IMG/VR virus record: IMGVR_UViG_3300035698_006643
Location: 8,744-72,743 of that record
Source of the DNA: a virus
Direction: 5' to 3' (one strand)
DNA length: 64,000 bases
The position numbers and the translations under genes were made by a program. The first letter of the stretch is position 1; every line of letters starts with the position of its first letter. Under the pieces are notes generated by a model. It was given only the letters and a program-made list of their open reading frames with translations. It was not told where the DNA came from and searched no databases. This document shows positions 7,484-62,786 of this stretch, one piece after another.

Positions 7484-10400
7484 CTACCTACGCCGCATCC
7501 TGCTTGCAATCCCAAGGGCAGACCCCCGTTGTGGGGCCATCCCTGTTTGACGGGCCTTCCGTATCTTCTGAGTGAGGGAATCCACCTTAGTCCTCGGGTG
7601 GCCAAAGACCGAAGACTTGGTAGCGTCTGATGCAAACTTCGTGTCCCTCAGTCGTTCTGTTGACAACCAGATTGACCTCACTAATGAATCTGCCCGGTCG
7701 TCGTGCATCCCAACAATTTTCGGGGCGTGAACAACAACGATGTTCCGGCTGGTCTGTTCTGCTTCCAGGGTACAAATCTCTTCGACCAAATAAGAATCTG
7801 AACTCCCTTTCTTGCCCTCAAACTCAGCCAGTTCGATTCTACTATCAAACAGCATCATCTTTGTATTCTGGAACATCGACGATGCTAGAGCCGTCAGTAT
7901 TCGCTGAGCCTCAAACTGGTTCAATCCCCTACGACGCAACGACTGTTCCAGCGGAATCCCGTTCCACTGGTCGAGAACCCCTTTTCGGATAATGAAGCGC
8001 TTACTAAGTTGGTAGATCCATTCAGCGATATCTTCTAGTTCAAGGCGGTCCTTATCCAACGCCCAGTCATGTTTGAATAGGTCTCGTACCCCTGGAGGAA
8101 GGGGCTGACCAGCGTACACACATTCGTGGTAGTCAACTACAATGCTAGTTCCGTTACCTGAAGGCCGTGACAGAGTGATAGCTGACCCATCAGTTACCAG
8201 CCCTAGATCCACCCCACAGTCGTAGGAAACCTTTGGCCCCTTAGACCGCTTCAAAGGCTTCCTACCTTCTACCACGCACTTCTGAACTTCTTCCTTACGT
8301 TCAATCCACCCACGGATTCGGTCAGCAAAGTTCGCCCCGAACTCGACCATGAATACTTCAGGGTCTTCGTGGTACTTCGTCCGAAGGTACTGGGATGGAA
8401 TCGTAGGATTCATTTCAGCCGAAGGAGCTTGAATGACTAGGATATCCCCGGCACCTTCCCCACCCTGAAACCCAAGGTAGTACAGTTCAAAGAACTTACC
8501 GTCCCGCATCCCAGGAGAAGAAATAGCCAGAACACGACCATCAGTTGTTTCCTTCAGCTTCTTCGTGGAATCTTCGGGGTCCTTCGGTGTGAAGGATGCT
8601 GCTGATGGTGTTACAGCTTCCCAGACTGACTTACTCGACGCCCGCTTGCTGGAATCCTGGAAGTGTGCAAATTCATCAAGAATGATGACGATGTTACCAG
8701 GACCACGAAGCCCCTTAGCCACACAGCTACGGAAACCAACCTTAATGGAAGCTGGCCCCTTAGTGTCGTCATACCGTCCATAGTCGTCAATGTCCTTGGC
8801 CGTCTGAAGGGTTACGACTGACTGTGTGTGCCTAGCTAGATAGTCGGTAAAGTACCCAACCGACTTGAAATGTGTTTGCACAGACGAAAAGAGGATCCCA
8901 GCCTGTTCCTTATCAGTAGCCACCGTGATGACCTGAAAGGGGTTACCCCGAGCCAAACCGTAGTACAGGTACGGGTCTGCGATGTGGAGGATGCGGTAGG
9001 TCTCATACGACGCCACCGTAGAGGAGAGGAACGTATTGTGGTTGACGACCCCCCCAGCCACGAATGATGGTTCAGCATCATCTGGCATTGACAAGTCGGC
9101 AACTTCAGCTAGTTCAATCTGCCTGTCTGTAACTTCTACCCAGAAGTAATCCTGGTCAGCCAATTCCCGAAGATGGTCTGTCTCTGGGAACCCCTGAAGC
9201 TCTGGTTGGGCTAAGATTCGTTCCAATCTGGAATATGTGAGGTCATTCCGGCTCTGGTCTTTAACAACTGGGCCAAAAACCCTTCTCACCTTAGATTTCA
9301 CTTTGTCAGTTGAAATCATCTGACCAGTCTTCTGGTCCTGCTTCCTTGTATCTGGGATTCGATTCAAAAGACGACGGCACCAGTCTCGTTGAAAGGGAAT
9401 GCTCTCGGCGGTTCCACCTTCCTTCGACTTACGGCACGACACTTCCAACTGGCTCTGCTTTTTCTGAGACCGGAAACCGATCAAATCAAGGAACAACTGC
9501 TTACTACGAAGCCCCTGAAGTGTCAGCGTGTAGTAGTTTCGTTCGTACTTTTTATTCCACTTGGGGCGAATCCCAGACACAATCCCGAGATTCAAGAGTA
9601 GAGCCTGGACCTGACGGACTAGAAGTCTTGATGAACTGGTCAGAGTCACTTTCTTCTGGCCTTCGACACACCCATCAGCTTCAAACAATGACCGTATGAA
9701 CCAGCAGACAACCTTCTGAGGAGACTGCATCACTACCCAAGGAACCTGCTTCGTTTCATTGGTCGCTACCAGACTAAACCCGCACCAATCTAAGAAGTGG
9801 CGAACGGGCTTCGACGCTAGGTAAACACAACCGGTGTTTTCACGACGCTTATCTTTCCTGACACTGTACCGCCTGAATAGCCGGGTGAAAAGTTCTCGGA
9901 GGTCTTCCCAGGTTTCGTGGTGGTCTACAGCAACTTCGACACGGTTGTCGTAGTTCCATAGCCCGTCACCTACTAGATACCCCAAAAGAGTTGTCCAATC
10001 TTCATCCAGCACTGAGGGAACATCAAACAACTTTGCCGACGCCCCCCACTTAGGGGGACTGTAAGCTAGGAGGTCAACTTCATCCCCCCAGACCCCAGCA
10101 CCACGATGGATAGCGACGTAGTCCCCTGGTTCAAGGTCTACTACCTTTTTCCACCCAGGAACCCCGTCAGATTGCATTGCTACAACCTGGTGCCTATCAG
10201 CACTACCTGTCACTTCTAATCCGAGCTTTGTCTGAAGAACGACAGTCTCTTTCAAGCCGCCGTCATAGTAATAGGCTGGTTCGACTAATCCACTAGGTTG
10301 AACCACCTGGAACGGGTCAGTAATGTACTGAACTTCAGCCCCTGTTCCCTGGTCTAAATCAGCGACTGCAACCAGACCCTTTGACGTGGGAATCAAGGTA

Positions 10401-54198: not shown

Positions 54199-54855
54199 TT
54201 AGAGGTAGGAATCAAGAACAGCCCCTATCTTATAGGATGGAATTACAGCACTGTTTTCAGTCAGTATCCGAAAGACCTTCCATCCCCGTGCCGACAGGTC
54301 AGCATCACGAAGCATATCTTCAGCTTCAATTTCAGGATTCTGGTGGTACCGACCATCGAATTCAATGACAGCCCGCTGGTCAGGTAGAACAAGGTCAACG
54401 ATGTAAGGGCCAATAGGTTCTTCAAATTGGTAGGGTACTTCCATTTCATCAAGTAGTACCTTGATTTCAACATACTTCCAGGCTTCTCGTAGCCGAAGAA
54501 TTTCGTGAATAGGTAAGGCATTATCACAGTGCTGTCTTCCAGCTTCCCACCGTCGTTCTTTAGCTTCAGGGGATACGCACCTGTATCGAAGATAGTCGGC
54601 ACATTCATCTGAACAAGTCCTCCTGGCTTTACAGGTGTCCTTTACCTGGAAGACGGCCCCACAGACTACACACTTCTTGTCAATGATTTTGGCTGTTCGT
54701 CCCAAGAACTTGTTAGCGTGAATGGCACAACATGTCCTGCAACAGTACATCCCTCGGCCCTTTTTCAGAGCCCGGTTGACTTCACTCAATGCTTTCAGGT
54801 GCATCTTGCCGCAGTCAGGATTCTGACAACGGACTTCAGTCATTGTTCGTCCCAT
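54199..54855 (-). CDS. Free-standing DUF559/Vsr-like endonuclease with zinc fingers
   Basis: Two C..C...C...C units; YIVDL; IEFDGRYH; RDADL...GWKVFRI. Confidence 0.85.
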   Translation of the reverse strand: MGRTMTEVRCQNPDCGKMHLKALSEVNRALKKGRGMYCCRTCCAIHANKFLGRTAKIIDKKCVVCGAVFQVKDTCKARRTCSDECADYLRYRCVSPEAKERRWEAGRQHCDNALPIHEILRLREAWKYVEIKVLLDEMEVPYQFEEPIGPYIVDLVLPDQRAVIEFDGRYHQNPEIEAEDMLRDADLSARGWKVFRILTENSAVIPSYKIGAVLDSYL

Positions 54856-54861
54856 TTGACA

Positions 54862-54883
54862 CCTGGTTTCAAGAACTTGGACA
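54862..54883 (-). repeat. 22-bp exact copy of the TnpB element right end (62046-62067)
   Basis: TGTCCAAGTTCTTGAAACCAGG at both sites. Confidence 0.95.
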
Positions 54884-54946
54884 GTCAGTTGATGGAAGTG
54901 TCAAGGGGTAGTGAAACCCAGGGACAGCCTAATGAAATCGGTATAG

Positions 54947-55315
54947 TGGAGGTGGCGTGAATCGAACACGCGTCCGTTAAAGGGTCACTCTGCACGTCTA
55001 CGTGTGTAGGCAAAAGTGTTTGGGTTTCCCCATCTCGCCCTACGACCATCACTCTTGCCAGAAGTGTTCGTCAGGCTACCCTCGTTTGTCTTGTTTCCAT
55101 CAGCCCCGTGGGTACGGACTTCAGGCAGCAGACCGAATAAATGACGAAAGGGTCCAGGTCACAGTCTTCCCTGGTCTTTCGGGCTACGAGTTTTTACGCA
55201 GCCATGCGAACTGGTGTGTTTGCATTTAGTGTTTGCAACGCTTTTGACAGGGTGCGTTACCTCCCCGACACGCAATACAGGTTTCCGACTCCAACGTCGA
55301 AGCCATGTCACCCCC
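54947..55315 (-). ncRNA. ssrA: tmRNA; tag ANTPVRMAA* at 55194-55223
   Basis: 5' GGGGGTGAC...TTCGAC; acceptor stem with G3-U; T-arm GCGTG TTCGATT CACGC; resume context TAAAT GCA; promoter TTGAGG-17-TATAGT at 55337-55365. Confidence 0.95.
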
Positions 55316-59551: not shown

Positions 59552-59590
59552 ACCTCCTGCAAAGGTTCGGGTCTATAAACACTTTTGTAG

Positions 59591-59675
59591 AGGATGGTGG
59601 GGGATTTGAACCCCCGAGACATTTCTGCCTGCTGGTTTTCAAGACCAGTGCCATAAGCCGCTCGGCCAACCATCC
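59591..59675 (-). tRNA. tRNA-Ser(TGA)
   Basis: GGATGGT/ACCATCC acceptor; CTGGT-CTTGAAA-ACCAG; long variable arm. Confidence 0.93.
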
Positions 59676-59954: not shown

Positions 59955-60029
59955 TGGAGCCGACAGAGGGAATCGAACCCCCAGCCAACTGATTACAAAT
60001 CAGCCGTTCTACCGTTGAACTATGTCGGC
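59955..60029 (-). tRNA. tRNA-Thr(TGT), CCA encoded
   Basis: Cloverleaf; GCTGA-TTTGTAA-TCAGT. Confidence 0.95.
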
Positions 60030-60245: not shown

Positions 60246-60682
60246 TGACCCACCCCCTAGCCCACAGGTTTCGTACAGTGGGATGATACAACTGAGGTAG
60301 CTTAGATTCGGGGACCTTCTTCATCGGACTTCGAGTCCGTCTTGCTGTCAGCAAAGAACCGCCCGACGAACTTGAAAAGGACGTAGACCACAAAAGGCGA
60401 CCCGGTAGACCCAACGAACCAGATGTCAAACCCTGAGAGGTCGGATGTACACCCAACGATATCGTTCCCTTAGCCCCTGATTCTGACAAGGGCAGGTTCT
60501 AGGAGGCGGTTAAATACTTGCCCCCAGATTCGGTTTATAGTCTGTGGGTCTGTAGGTAAAGAAGGAGGTTGAAGCCGCTTCCTGAAAAGTTGGACAAACT
60601 TGGACAAAAAGACCTGACAACAACGCAAGGAGAAGCAACCTCCTAGAGGTTGCTAGTTTGTAACTTCAGATAAAATAAATAC

Positions 60683-60711
60683 TTGACAAGTCCCCGCAAT
60701 GTACCTATTAT
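60683..60711 (+). promoter_or_regulatory. sigma70 promoter overlapped by an inverted repeat (possible RHH operator)
   Basis: TTGACA-17-TATTAT; GTCCC...AAT...ATT...GGGAC at 60690-60717. Confidence 0.8.
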
Positions 60712-60717
60712 AGGGAC

Positions 60718-60864
60718 ATGAGAAAACGACCAACAAAACTTTATTTCGATCAGGATATTTGGGAATGGCTTCAAGTTGAGGCTCAACGTCTACGTTGTTC
60801 AGTAAGCGAAGTTGTTAGACGGCTTGCTTTGACTGAAATGACAAGACAACGAGAAAGTAGGTGA
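60718..60864 (+). CDS. Ribbon-helix-helix (CopG-like) protein, 48 aa, probably leaderless
   Basis: MRKRPTKLYFDQDIWEWLQVEAQRLRCSVSEVVRRLAL...; GTGA overlap with tnpB; below the ORF-track size cut-off. Confidence 0.8.
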   Translation: MRKRPTKLYFDQDIWEWLQVEAQRLRCSVSEVVRRLALTEMTRQRESR

Positions 60865-62060
60865 TCCTCTCCCACAAAATACGGCTTGCCCCAAATGAAG
60901 AGCAGGAAGCTTATTTTCGGCAAGCTTGTGGTGTCTCCCGGTTTACCTATAACTGGGCACTTGCCAGGTGGAAAGAAACCTACGAAGCTGGGGGGAAGCC
61001 CAGCGGCAGGTCGCTCAAGGTAGAGTTTAATGCGATCCGCCAAACGGATTTTCCCTGGACTTTCGAGGTTCATCGGGACTGTACAGCCGGGGCGTTTGAT
61101 CAGGTTCACTCAGCTTTTCAAGGTTTCTTCAGGCGTGCCAAGAAGGGCGGCAAGCCCGGCTACCCGAAGTTCAAGAAGAAAGGGCGCTGTAAGGACTCTT
61201 TCAGTATTGCCAATGATAAGTTCTCCCTCGACGGCAAGAAGATCCGGGTGCCGAAGCTTGGTTGGGTTAAAACGCGGGAAGCTCTGCGCTTCTCGGGAAA
61301 GATCATGTCCGCTGTTGTCAGCCGAACAGCGGACAAATGGTTTATGGCTATTGCTGTAGATATCGAAGTAGCCCGTCAGCCCCCGAAAATCAAGGGGGTT
61401 GTGGGGGTTGACCTGGGTATCGCTGCTCTGGCTACGATGTCCGATGGCAGGACGGTTCAGCACTCTCCGAGCTGGAGGAAACTGGAAAAGCAAGTGCGGA
61501 GGCTTCAAAAATCCGTGAGCCGGAAACAGAAAGGGTCAGCAAGCCGACGAAAAGCCGTTGTCAGACTGTCCCGAAAACACTACGAGTTGTTCTGTCTGCG
61601 CTTGGACACGTTGCACAAGCTAACAACAGGGCTGGTCCAGAACTACAAAGGGATTGCCATCGAAGACCTGAACGTCAAGGGGATGGTCAAAAACCATCAC
61701 TTGGCTCGGGCTATTTCCCGACAGGGCTGGTCTGAGTTCCGAAGGCAACTTGAGTACAAGTCCGTAATGCACGACAGGCAACTCGTCATTGCGGACAGAT
61801 TCTATCCCTCAACGAAGACTTGCTCGGGCTGTGGTGATATCAGGGCCGTTGCACTGTCGGAACGGATCTACAAGTGCTCTGTTTGTGGTTTATCCATTGA
61901 CAGGGATCTCAATGCTGCAATAAACCTTTCAAGGCTACCCGTGGGTAACGGGGATGATAAGCCGGTGGAGACAGAAGCCCTGGCTGGTCGATGTTTGACC
62001 AGTGAAACTACTGTCTGCGAAACCGGAACAAGGCTTGGGCAAGTTTGTCCAAGTTCTTGA
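60861..62060 (+). CDS. tnpB: RNA-guided nuclease TnpB
   Basis: GVDLG; IEDL; CSGC/CSVC; DRDLNAAINL; all three RuvC acidic residues present. Confidence 0.95.
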   Translation: MILSHKIRLAPNEEQEAYFRQACGVSRFTYNWALARWKETYEAGGKPSGRSLKVEFNAIRQTDFPWTFEVHRDCTAGAFDQVHSAFQGFFRRAKKGGKPGYPKFKKKGRCKDSFSIANDKFSLDGKKIRVPKLGWVKTREALRFSGKIMSAVVSRTADKWFMAIAVDIEVARQPPKIKGVVGVDLGIAALATMSDGRTVQHSPSWRKLEKQVRRLQKSVSRKQKGSASRRKAVVRLSRKHYELFCLRLDTLHKLTTGLVQNYKGIAIEDLNVKGMVKNHHLARAISRQGWSEFRRQLEYKSVMHDRQLVIADRFYPSTKTCSGCGDIRAVALSERIYKCSVCGLSIDRDLNAAINLSRLPVGNGDDKPVETEALAGRCLTSETTVCETGTRLGQVCPSS

Positions 62061-62067
62061 AACCAGG
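61930..62067 (+). ncRNA. omegaRNA scaffold overlapping the tnpB 3' end (5' boundary approximate)
   Basis: Stems CCGGT/ACCGG, GACAG/CTGTC, CTGGTCGA/TTGACCAG; terminal hairpin 62029-62059; pseudoknot CCTGG(61979)/CCAGG(62063). Confidence 0.75.
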
Positions 62068-62075
62068 ACCAAACC

Positions 62076-62786
62076 ATGCAACTGAAAATCGCTTACTCAG
62101 TCAACGCAGCAACAGTCTCACTGGAAAAAGCCAGGGCTTACGCCGAAGAAGCCTTCAAGAAAGCAGGACAGGACCTTGACAAGGTGCTTCCAAACTTCGA
62201 CAAGAACTACATGGTCTTACAGCGTCAATGCAAGAAAGCCATGAACGTACCTCGGATTCAAATGCCGGTCATTGAACCCAGTGACATCAACCAGTTCGCC
62301 AAAGATATCCAGAAAGGTCGGGTGGATATCTTCGCCCCCTACGCCAAAGGGAAATTCAAGTTCCCTGAATCGGCCAAGGATGAAGAATGGATTGGATTGG
62401 GATACGCCGACGGGTCTAAGACAGACGACGTAATCCGTGGGAACATCAAGAGCATCCCTGTAGGGAAACTGGTTCCGACCCAGTCTCAGATTTGGCTGGA
62501 CAAGATGATTGGGAACATCATCAAGTTTGGCCCAGTGAAGTCTGGGTCTCCGGTACTGTCGTTGACCATCATCGTGTCGAAGGAAGGTTACATCCTTGAC
62601 GGGCATCACCGTTACGGTCAAGCCACCCTGTGTGACCCTGGCCTCAAGATGAAGTCCCTATTCGTCCCCTTGCCTATCAAAGAACTTCTCGAGGTCGGGC
62701 GGGCCTATGGCGACTGGCTGGGGAATTCCCGTAAGGGGTCCTATCGAGAACGACTCGCCGCCTGGTTTGATTTCGACCACCAGTAG
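62076..62786 (+). CDS. ParB/Srx-like domain protein
   Basis: LVPTQSQI; IIVSKEGYILDGHHRY; N-terminal KIAYS motif. Confidence 0.75.
   Translation: MQLKIAYSVNAATVSLEKARAYAEEAFKKAGQDLDKVLPNFDKNYMVLQRQCKKAMNVPRIQMPVIEPSDINQFAKDIQKGRVDIFAPYAKGKFKFPESAKDEEWIGLGYADGSKTDDVIRGNIKSIPVGKLVPTQSQIWLDKMIGNIIKFGPVKSGSPVLSLTIIVSKEGYILDGHHRYGQATLCDPGLKMKSLFVPLPIKELLEVGRAYGDWLGNSRKGSYRERLAAWFDFDHQ

Follow-up and report, generated by a model that had tools for sequence, protein, structure and literature searches.

The closest described relatives of the element analyzed here are insertion sequences of the IS607 family, whose autonomous members encode a serine-recombinase transposase, TnpA (a MerR-type helix–turn–helix and a resolvase domain), beside the nuclease TnpB. 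Our subject is a tnpB element in a 64,000-nt stretch of phage DNA, hereafter the window (positions 8,744 to 72,743 of IMG/VR record IMGVR_UViG_3300035698_006643), which lies between the Shine–Dalgarno (SD) sequence and the start codon of a gene encoding a 236-amino acid (aa) protein. Cas12 nucleases descend from TnpB elements, which are now under development as compact genome editors; how natural TnpB elements are sited and how they affect neighboring genes have been far less studied than how TnpB cuts.

The termini and targets of Helicobacter pylori IS607 and of IS607-family TnpA proteins carry GG, and no further target pattern is described (Chen et al., eLife 2018, PMC6188088). GG is the core published for IS607, IS1535, ISC1926, and the Cbo element. 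According to a study of the Clostridium botulinum IS607 IStron, the transposase target coincides with the transposon-associated motif (TAM) of TnpB, and TnpB restores the element after excision; discrimination between TGGG and TCGG was shown experimentally, the right end differing at one critical position and the element itself remaining uncut (Zedaveinyte et al., bioRxiv 10.1101/2023.11.20.567912). An AGGAG TAM adjacent to the putative left end is given for 18 of 22 strains with IS607 TnpBs by Ren et al. (Cell Res 2024, PMC11061315). For IS605 elements, including some composed of arc and tnpB only, a preprint describes Arc as the product of a small ribbon–helix–helix (RHH) gene that represses the native tnpB promoter in reporter assays (bioRxiv 10.64898/2026.09.24.754181). 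Precedents exist for an IS607-family TnpB, for an AGGAG TAM, and for Arc in tnpB elements. ISDra2, an IS200/IS605 element, has a Y1 transposase partner, a TTGAT TAM, and hairpin ends. Searches of full text, including that of PMC11061315 and of 2026 reviews in which the AGGAG TAM is mentioned, revealed no link of IS607 or TnpB to targeting of SD sequences or ribosome-binding sites (RBSs); supplements and nonopen papers lie outside this scope, and the flank tables of PMC11061315 may bear on the matter.

The window element resembles the C. botulinum IStron in its 2-bp core, found at each end and singly in the donor joint, and in its mismatched right-end motif; it differs in that the motifs of its branch are AGGAG/ACCAG with an AG core rather than TGGG/TCGG with a GG core, and in that it lacks both a group I intron and tnpA. 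With H. pylori IS607 (PMC6188088), it shares short repeats near the ends, a 2-bp identity exchange, and the lack of terminal inverted repeats and target duplication, whereas the core of its branch is AG and is preceded by a 4–5-nt motif. An IS607 TnpB, a G-rich AGGAG motif, and a guide from the right flank, predicted in our case, are common to our element and the ISFba1/RAGATH-18 IS607 TnpBs (PMC11061315). In contrast to ISFba1, the window element has no detected RAGATH-18 motif, its RNA scaffold overlaps the 3′ end of tnpB, whose stop codon is only 6 nt short of the element end, three of four mapped base-contacting TAM residues are changed in the alignment, and arc is present where tnpA is absent. 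Unlike the arc of IS605 elements, that of the window belongs to an IS607 lineage and is codirectional and translationally overlapped with tnpB.

We conclude that this is probably a tnpA-less IS607 arc–tnpB element lodged at an AGGAG inside an RBS, one of a branch whose members accumulate in the gap between SD and ATG because of the motif they recognize. The reading draws on the anatomy and lineage of the element, an AG junction in the empty site of a relative, a conserved RNA, and a positional bias. For the window, the outcome is a clean annotation of a tnpA-less arc–tnpB element with corrected boundaries and a predicted guide that is likewise corrected. Its features are as follows (loci with which it was compared carry L numbers).

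60563–60567, plus strand: AGGAG, left-flank target and putative TAM, core of the SD of the downstream gene; also flanks the left ends of relatives (11 of 15)
60568–60609, plus strand: left end (LE); TTGGACAAA occurs twice as a direct repeat, at 60590–60598 and 60600–60608; 87–92% identical to the LEs of L006, L056, and L052
60634–60654, plus strand: hairpin AGCAACCTC-CTA-GAGGTTGCT followed by AGTTTGT, read from the sequence
60683–60711, plus strand: sigma70-like promoter, TTGACA-17-TATTAT, matching 11 of 12 consensus positions; TTGACA is in place in the LEs of relatives
60718–60864, plus strand: arc-like gene, 48 aa, predicted RHH protein; its stop overlaps the tnpB start (GTGA)
60861–62060, plus strand: tnpB, 399 aa, GTG start, assigned by Pfam and by alignment with ISDra2 TnpB
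61928–62066, plus strand: omega-RNA scaffold and right end (RE), overlapping the 3′ end of tnpB; the RE ends with AG at 62065–62066
62067–62086, plus strand: predicted guide/target GACCAAACCATGCAACTGAA, directly 3′ of the conserved RE end and spanning the downstream start codon
62076–62786, plus strand: gene whose RBS is interrupted, 236 aa, matching phrog_2859 (unknown function) with an E value of 1.1e-10

Anatomy and lineage of the element

The components are arranged in the order left end, promoter, arc-like gene, tnpB, guide-RNA scaffold, and right end. The TTGGACAAA motif recurs as an imperfect inverted copy in the RE, and the ends carry the short repeated subterminal motifs of IS607 elements rather than terminal inverted repeats. 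The sigma70-like promoter that the first-pass annotation had placed inside the element is a strong match to consensus. An inverted repeat, GTCCC (60689)…GGGAC (60717), flanks the promoter and is also present in L051; by analogy with the IS605 Arc preprint, we regard it as a candidate Arc operator. The hairpin at 60634 may act as a weak terminator, shielding the element from transcription that enters from upstream; the terminator scan did not call it, and L056 and L006 lack it. At the other end, the tnpB stop codon lies 6 nt from the element end and 15 nt from the downstream ATG. The distance from stop codon to right end is 6–14 nt in the window, L006, L049, L052, L051, L058, L064, and L135–L138; the notion of a constant 7–8-nt spacing was softened, as the distance is about 100 nt in L062, L074, and L059.

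TnpB matches the Pfam families HTH_OrfB_IS605, OrfB_IS605 (E value of 1.3e-24), and Cas12f1-like_TNB (2.5e-21). Its closest natural solved structure by sequence is ISDra2 TnpB (PDB 8bf8, 8h1j), to which it aligns over residues 6–359 with an E value of 4.7e-61 and which it resembles in domain order and catalytic motifs; the match to the IS607 TnpB of ISFba1 (8IAZ) has an E value of 8.1e-52. The VDLG, IEDL, and DRDLN catalytic motifs and the CxxC…CxxC zinc motif all align with ISDra2 TnpB, and the protein has the RuvC D-E-D residues and zinc-finger TNB domain of TnpB/OMEGA systems. By this alignment, the nuclease appears intact. A TldR-type nuclease-dead repressor was considered and ruled out based on the full length (399 aa) and the intact catalytic motifs.

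The 48-aa open reading frame (ORF) upstream of tnpB matches no Pfam family, RHH families included, and no PHROGs family, and a profile search of PDB sequences returned weak matches, of which the best to an RHH protein is CdbA (E value of 0.36). It is 79–81% conserved in L056 and L051. An AlphaFold2 model built from five sequences (predicted local distance difference test score of 93.8) contains helices at residues 12–25 and 29–47, and the top PDB matches identified using Foldseek are RHH proteins (CdbA, ParG, CopA_SO, CopG, Arc, and PutA), with query-normalized template-modeling scores of 0.57–0.89 across the listed hits and E values of 0.07–1 owing to the small size of the protein. The model supports an RHH fold of the Arc/CopG type.

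An alignment of the last 140 nt of 17 elements reveals a scaffold of 27 consensus pairs, 21 of which include compensatory changes. Paired cells amount to 93.7%, compared with 35–45% in slid-partner controls, and none of 500 shuffles equaled the observed values. The window scaffold folds alike on its own (single-sequence z = −3.25). A covariance model built from the 17-element alignment, R1, scores 133.8 bits at the window element and matched about 160 fetched loci at E values up to 0.01; 67 hits of at least 50 bits were taken further. The element shares with TnpB/OMEGA systems a structured scaffold located at the 3′ end of tnpB and terminating at the right end. No Rfam family reached its gathering score across the window, and none was matched at E values up to 10 over positions 60500–62300.

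Our TnpB scans covered 45 viral, 80 metagenomic, and 80 genomic loci. The closest loci by TnpB (68–77% identity) are L006, L049, and L051–L056, and both their left and right ends can be aligned with those of the window element. A TnpA composed of MerR and Resolvase domains is encoded between the left end and tnpB in L006, L052, and L049; L006, with a TnpB that is 75% identical, an LE that is 89% identical, and the same RE, combines this transposase with ends like those of the window. TnpA adjoins tnpB in L052, L049, L060, L086/L087, L065, L008/L076, L084, L059, L058, L003, and many distant loci. The window element and L056 have arc in place of tnpA, and L051 encodes arc, a 415-aa passenger ORF, and tnpB. 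Between the LE and tnpB of the window element there is no tnpA ORF, and a serine recombinase beside tnpB, the hallmark of an autonomous IS607 element, is lacking from this copy. The first-pass assignment to the IS607 lineage is borne out by these TnpA-bearing relatives with alignable ends. Given that the relatives carry TnpA and the window copy does not, the element is, on sequence comparison, a nonautonomous, tnpA-less derivative of the IS607 lineage.

Insertion site and element boundaries

The window sequence reads …GTAGGTAAAGAAGGAGG(60568)|TTGAAGCCGC at the left junction and …TTCTTGAAACCAGG(62067)|ACCAAACC-ATG(62076) at the right junction, as the first-pass annotation wrote them; that is, …GTAGGTAAAGAAGGAGG is followed by TTGAAGCCGCTTCC on the left and …TTCTTGAAACCAGG by ACCAAACC on the right. 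Deletion of the element in silico yields, again as proposed there, AAGGAGG, 8 nt, and the ATG of the 236-aa ORF at 62076–62786. The full SD, AAGGAGG, occupies 60562–60568. In the element-free frame of the 236-aa gene, an in-frame stop precedes the junction by four codons and the first start follows it by 9 nt; because the upstream frame is open for only four codons, the insertion is placed in the 5′ untranslated region between AAGGAGG and the ATG.

Our analysis departs from the first-pass annotation on the crossover, which it had placed at GG. Among the aligned elements, the RE is constant through …GAAACCAG (…GAAAGCAG in the next clade), ending in …CCAG or …GCAG, after which any of G, T, A, or C is found. 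The empty allele of a relative reads AAGGAG|ACATAGG. The exchange dinucleotide is AG instead, with copies at 60566–60567 on the left and 62065–62066 on the right and no other duplication. The boundary shifts leftward by one base, from GG| to AG|G, which leaves the reconstructed empty-site sequence of the window unchanged and gives a predicted element span of 60568–62066.

Similarity among independent insertions starts on the left at (A)GGAG-G. The 5-mer directly preceding the element is AGGAG at 11 of the 15 readable left junctions (the window, L056, L052, L086/87, L049, L065, L008, L054, which has a degenerate LE, L135, L137, and L138) and TGGAG (L006), CGGAG (L058), or GGGAG (L003 and L059) at the other four, such that GGAG is present at all 15. 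This tabulation supports the SD-like flank motif of the first-pass annotation. A G often follows AG directly, and an A at position −6 is also seen in the flanks; a wider target and the SD consensus could each explain these bases.

Alignment alone leaves undecidable whether GGAG belongs to the flank or to the element; hence, we searched for an empty site. L137 is one of three copies in an Acidiphilium genome and encodes a TnpB that is 44% identical to that of the window, with a like end architecture and an R1 score of 101.5 bits. Its occupied allele reads …GAGGAAGGAG|GTAGACTC…GGAAGCAG|ACATAGGGG, with the element starting GTAGAC, and the matching locus of a related genome, G010, which is orthologous but unoccupied, reads …GAGGAAGGAG|ACATAGGGGG, with AGGAG kept once. 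Based on this pair of alleles, AGGAG is the target and AG is the shared 2-bp core, with no duplication. A 2-bp core present at both ends and once in the empty target of the relative, together with the absence of a target-site duplication, is characteristic of IS607 elements. The published GG core is not found here; a sister branch with …CGG ends exists. For a second Acidiphilium copy, L135, no empty site was found, the sole homologue in the genus being ruvA at another locus.

About 107 nt of the L137 left flank (L137:1087–1193) recur tens of times, with 85–96% identity, in the Acidiphilium genomes G001, G004, and G010 and constitute a small dispersed repeat resembling miniature inverted-repeat transposable elements or repetitive extragenic palindromes.

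The flanks also suggest that (A)GGAG is the TAM of TnpB; the corresponding right-end sequence, ACCAG, differs from AGGAG at positions −3 and −4. The first-pass annotation had also offered a predicted guide. The start of this guide shifts to 62067 (GACC…), one base earlier than proposed, because the exchange dinucleotide is AG and not GG. GACCAAACCATGCAACTGAA is unique in the window, even when up to three mismatches are allowed. That this flank serves as guide is predicted from published TnpB biology.

Position relative to start codons and competing explanations

The ends of insertions were set by R1 hits of at least 50 bits with the flanks unseen, and hits below 50 bits were dropped. Removal of seven hits with less than 35 nt of flank and one duplicate left 59 distinct insertions. 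We counted an insertion as start-associated if an ATG-started ORF of at least 40 aa, or one that stays open over 15 or more codons up to the contig end, began 4–13 nt downstream. When insertions were divided according to the final dinucleotide of the right end, a post hoc split made once the pooled result was known and to which the orphan right end described below was added, an ATG was in range for 17 of 31 AG-ended insertions (21 of 31 for ATG, GTG, or TTG), compared with 2 of 26 GG-ended insertions (5 of 26 for any start) and none of three others. The baseline is given by AGGAG sites in the same 131 kb, for which the counts are 47 of 256 for ATG (18%) and 70 of 256 for any start. For the excess of the AG-ended insertions over this baseline, the binomial P is 5.7e-6 for ATG and 3.3e-6 for any start; for the difference between AG- and GG-ended insertions, the Fisher P is 1.8e-4. 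We read the bias as real, about 3-fold above motif expectation and confined to the AG/AGGAG branch, with closely related elements dominating the signal. The first-pass claim that such elements land in RBSs is supported by the enrichment of AG-ended relatives, not by the GG-ended ones. In L056, the element separates the SD of a small gene from its ATG and clips the last two codons of the preceding gene.

Several results weigh against this reading. A first small set defined using nhmmer had an ATG in range in 13 of 21 cases and overstated the effect: the pooled set has 18 of 59 (P = 0.02), and the 42 pooled members outside the model training set show no excess (7 of 42, P = 0.71). Within the nontraining members that end in AG, an ATG is in range for 5 of 15 (P = 0.12) and any start for 9 of 15 (P = 0.008). 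Insertions within genes occur, and the proposal that the element avoids breaking ORFs is not a rule: L137, the confirmed case, interrupts a 316-aa ORF on the opposite strand, and two cases are probable, L049, in an open frame of 161 codons and 19 codons short of its end, and L006, inside an open frame of 129 codons, the right part of which aligns with a pyrophosphatase profile over the C-terminal third of that profile only. The empty allele of the window site itself was not found in the phage collection or in viral contigs, and for this reason the window junction rests on homology; contigs of four runs contain no joint skipping the element, which, as contigs drop rare variants, is not proof of absence. 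The 72.7-kb record, which is itself only about 16% of the genome, contains no tnpA match. Of the residues that contact the TAM in ISFba1, N121 is kept and K80→D, K83→A, and N122→D are changed in a phmmer alignment with 8iaz, a mapping that uses a three-residue offset between paper and chain inferred from N61/N62 and that falls in an alignment region that is not highly confident. The RAGATH-18 motif was not detected by Rfam in the window, nor over 60500–62300 at E values up to 10. Given the changed contacts and the missing RAGATH-18, the AGGAG TAM of ISFba1 is not transferable by homology. Finally, target preference and purifying selection are inseparable with these data.

This last point leads to the strongest competing explanation, in which insertion occurs at any (A)GGAG, within-gene insertions are lost, and there is no preference for RBSs beyond the 5-mer. 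The within-ORF insertions of L137, L049, and L006 are in keeping with it, the motif alone places 18–27% of sites in RBS contexts, and the extended AAGGAG has no stronger RBS link in the window (3 of 23 sites). We regard selection alone as quite possible, if on balance doubtful; it differs from motif-driven accumulation just in the cause of the roughly 3-fold excess.

In the motif-driven reading that we prefer, an ancestral element would have been placed 3′ of an AGGAG by its own serine transposase, which in this branch would exchange strands at the AG shared by both ends and the target, and the (A)GGAG to the left of the element would be both transposase target and TAM. The guide RNA would run from the 3′ end of tnpB into the flank, and the occupied site would be spared owing to the mismatches of …ACCAG with the TAM at −3 and −4. 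TnpB would cut an element-free copy of the RBS, such as that of a coinfecting relative, and repair from the occupied copy would reinstall the element; for a tnpA-less phage copy, recombination after TnpB cutting would be the sole remaining route of spread. Because the recognized motif is the SD core, members of the branch would gather in the gap that follows the SD and precedes the start codon, in every case oriented like the gene, and purifying selection against within-gene insertions would probably sharpen the pattern. Arc may repress the element promoter. The downstream gene is parted from its SD by 1.5 kb and keeps only an AGGA, half of it from the right end; this substitute, which the first-pass annotation had pointed out, is present at 62065–62068, 7 nt before the ATG. 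The terminator scan called no terminator-like site between tnpB and the ATG, which makes read-through probable, and the gene is probably expressed by read-through from the element promoter and reinitiation after the tnpB stop 15 nt upstream.

One relative, L051, has no recognizable left end, and a 10-mer that follows its right end, GAGATAGATG, recurs to the left of the arc promoter (L051:61–76 and L051:2724–2733). The left GAGATAGATG directly follows CTGGAG, so that the portion of the target nearest the TAM, with the ATG of the downstream gene, is present twice. This duplication could be the footprint of break repair after TnpB cutting.

We are more cautious about a broader proposal, rather unlikely to hold in all its parts, in which the AG-core branch uses the SD core as both target and TAM and homes to the gap between SD and start codon, its copies control the genes they capture, and a tnpA-less phage TnpB homes alone. 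Each copy would be a 5′ control module, acting through an Arc-controlled promoter and reinitiation after the tnpB stop; the guide would span the start codon, which the host cannot easily alter to escape recutting; and the phage TnpB would act as a homing endonuclease between coinfecting genomes. If occupation of RBSs is systematic in a branch of IS607, any genome that uses SD sequences would offer a near-universal, conserved landing pad, the elements would always be co-oriented with and physically coupled to the downstream gene, with the guide covering its start codon, and they would be unrecognized modifiers of bacterial and phage gene expression whose targets could be found by a simple, testable rule.

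It is improbable that the pair of genes has been domesticated, that is, kept by the phage as a regulator of the ParB-like downstream gene or as a weapon against competitors and no longer selfish. The loss of tnpA, the tnpA-less arc–tnpB arrangement in L056 and L051, and a guide that spans the start codon of the gene are compatible with this proposal, as are the identical occupied junctions in contigs of three runs and in L093, which is the same occupied locus in another assembly. The catalytic motifs, however, are intact and unlike those of TldR-type repressors, the adjacent DNA carries ACCAG in place of a TAM, and the tnpB of L056 is broken by frameshifts, which suggests decay rather than retention.

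We consider it very improbable that GGAGG is part of the element, in which case the LE itself would start with an SD-like sequence and the true target would have no relation to RBSs. The motif is common to all aligned left junctions, an alignment that cannot place the boundary, but the empty site of the Acidiphilium relative keeps AAGGAG once without the following G-TAGAC, position −5 varies among A, T, C, and G, and downstream genes such as that of L135 would be left without an SD if the motif were absent. That the element is instead a solo tnpB of the IS200/IS605 group (IS1341-like), mobilized as single-stranded DNA by a Y1 transposase with GG/AG a coincidence, is hardly credible: ISDra2 TnpB is a closer match than ISFba1 TnpB and Arc was described for IS605 elements, but in every close relative that encodes a transposase, a serine recombinase gene immediately precedes tnpB, there is no HUH ORF among the listed ORFs of L006, L051, and L056, the ends have short IS607-type repeats rather than hairpins, and the flank motif is G-rich, not T-rich.

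Neighboring genes, orphan right end, and source

The following features lie outside the element.

60533–60540, plus strand: GTTTATAG motif, candidate phage promoter element, upstream of the interrupted RBS
54862–54883, minus strand: orphan right-end remnant (last 21 nt of the RE plus G), 22 of 22 nt identical to 62046–62067
54946–55315, minus strand: transfer-messenger RNA (tmRNA), tag ANTPVRMAA
55372–55454, minus strand: tRNA-Leu(tag)
59590–59675, minus strand: tRNA-Ser(tga)
59955–60029, minus strand: tRNA-Thr(tgt)

The 236-aa protein matches no Pfam family and is weakly ParB-like (ParB-like phrog_1033, E value of 0.049); no relative of its gene was found in the viral contigs searched. The GTTTATAG motif is present at 60533, where the first-pass annotation had reported it. 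It occurs five times in the window, at 1872, 4156, 44363, 59573 (minus), and 60533 (plus), compared with 0.71 expected, and none of 100 shuffles reached five. Four of the five copies precede a same-strand ORF start by 20–50 nt, and those at 59573 and 60533 form a divergent pair.

The orphan right end, previously noted to precede an ATG at 54855, is confirmed over all 22 nt and is followed by TGTCAA and then the ATG. The terminal AG falls at 54863, 7 nt ahead of this start codon, and the remnant lies about 60 nt 3′ of the tmRNA. There is no similarity beyond the 22 nt, and no SD-like motif remains upstream of the orphan. Relatives differ from the window at one to three positions over this stretch; the complete identity within the window therefore points to an origin of the orphan in this genome, where a second copy, likewise 7 nt before an ATG, probably left it behind. 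The ORF after the orphan (54199–54855, minus strand) encodes a 218-aa protein with Cys-rich N-terminal repeats and a DUF559/Vsr-like endonuclease domain (E value of 1.2e-10) and may be a free-standing homing-endonuclease-like gene.

The window belongs to a fragment of a large phage genome, a 72.7-kb viral record estimated to be 16% of that genome. Other than tRNA matches, no related phage DNA was found among the 50,697 phage records of the GenBank phage collection. The window is present in contigs of several salt-lake metagenome runs. Because the occupied junctions recur in contigs of three runs and in another assembly, the insertion is tolerated and common in the sampled populations. A second contig in runs X2 and X4 matches the LE (60563–60608) from AGGAGG on and has unrelated sequence before it; given this different flank, it represents a related element at another AGGAG site in another genome from the same habitat type.

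Two further observations concern relatives of the element. On the viral contig of L056 (L056:1200–4700), small Cys-rich ORFs with the start MN.C..CP..LLC form a tandem family. At two loci, two elements lie about 2–4 kb apart in the same orientation (L080:1258 and L080:3479; L008:126 and L008:4237).

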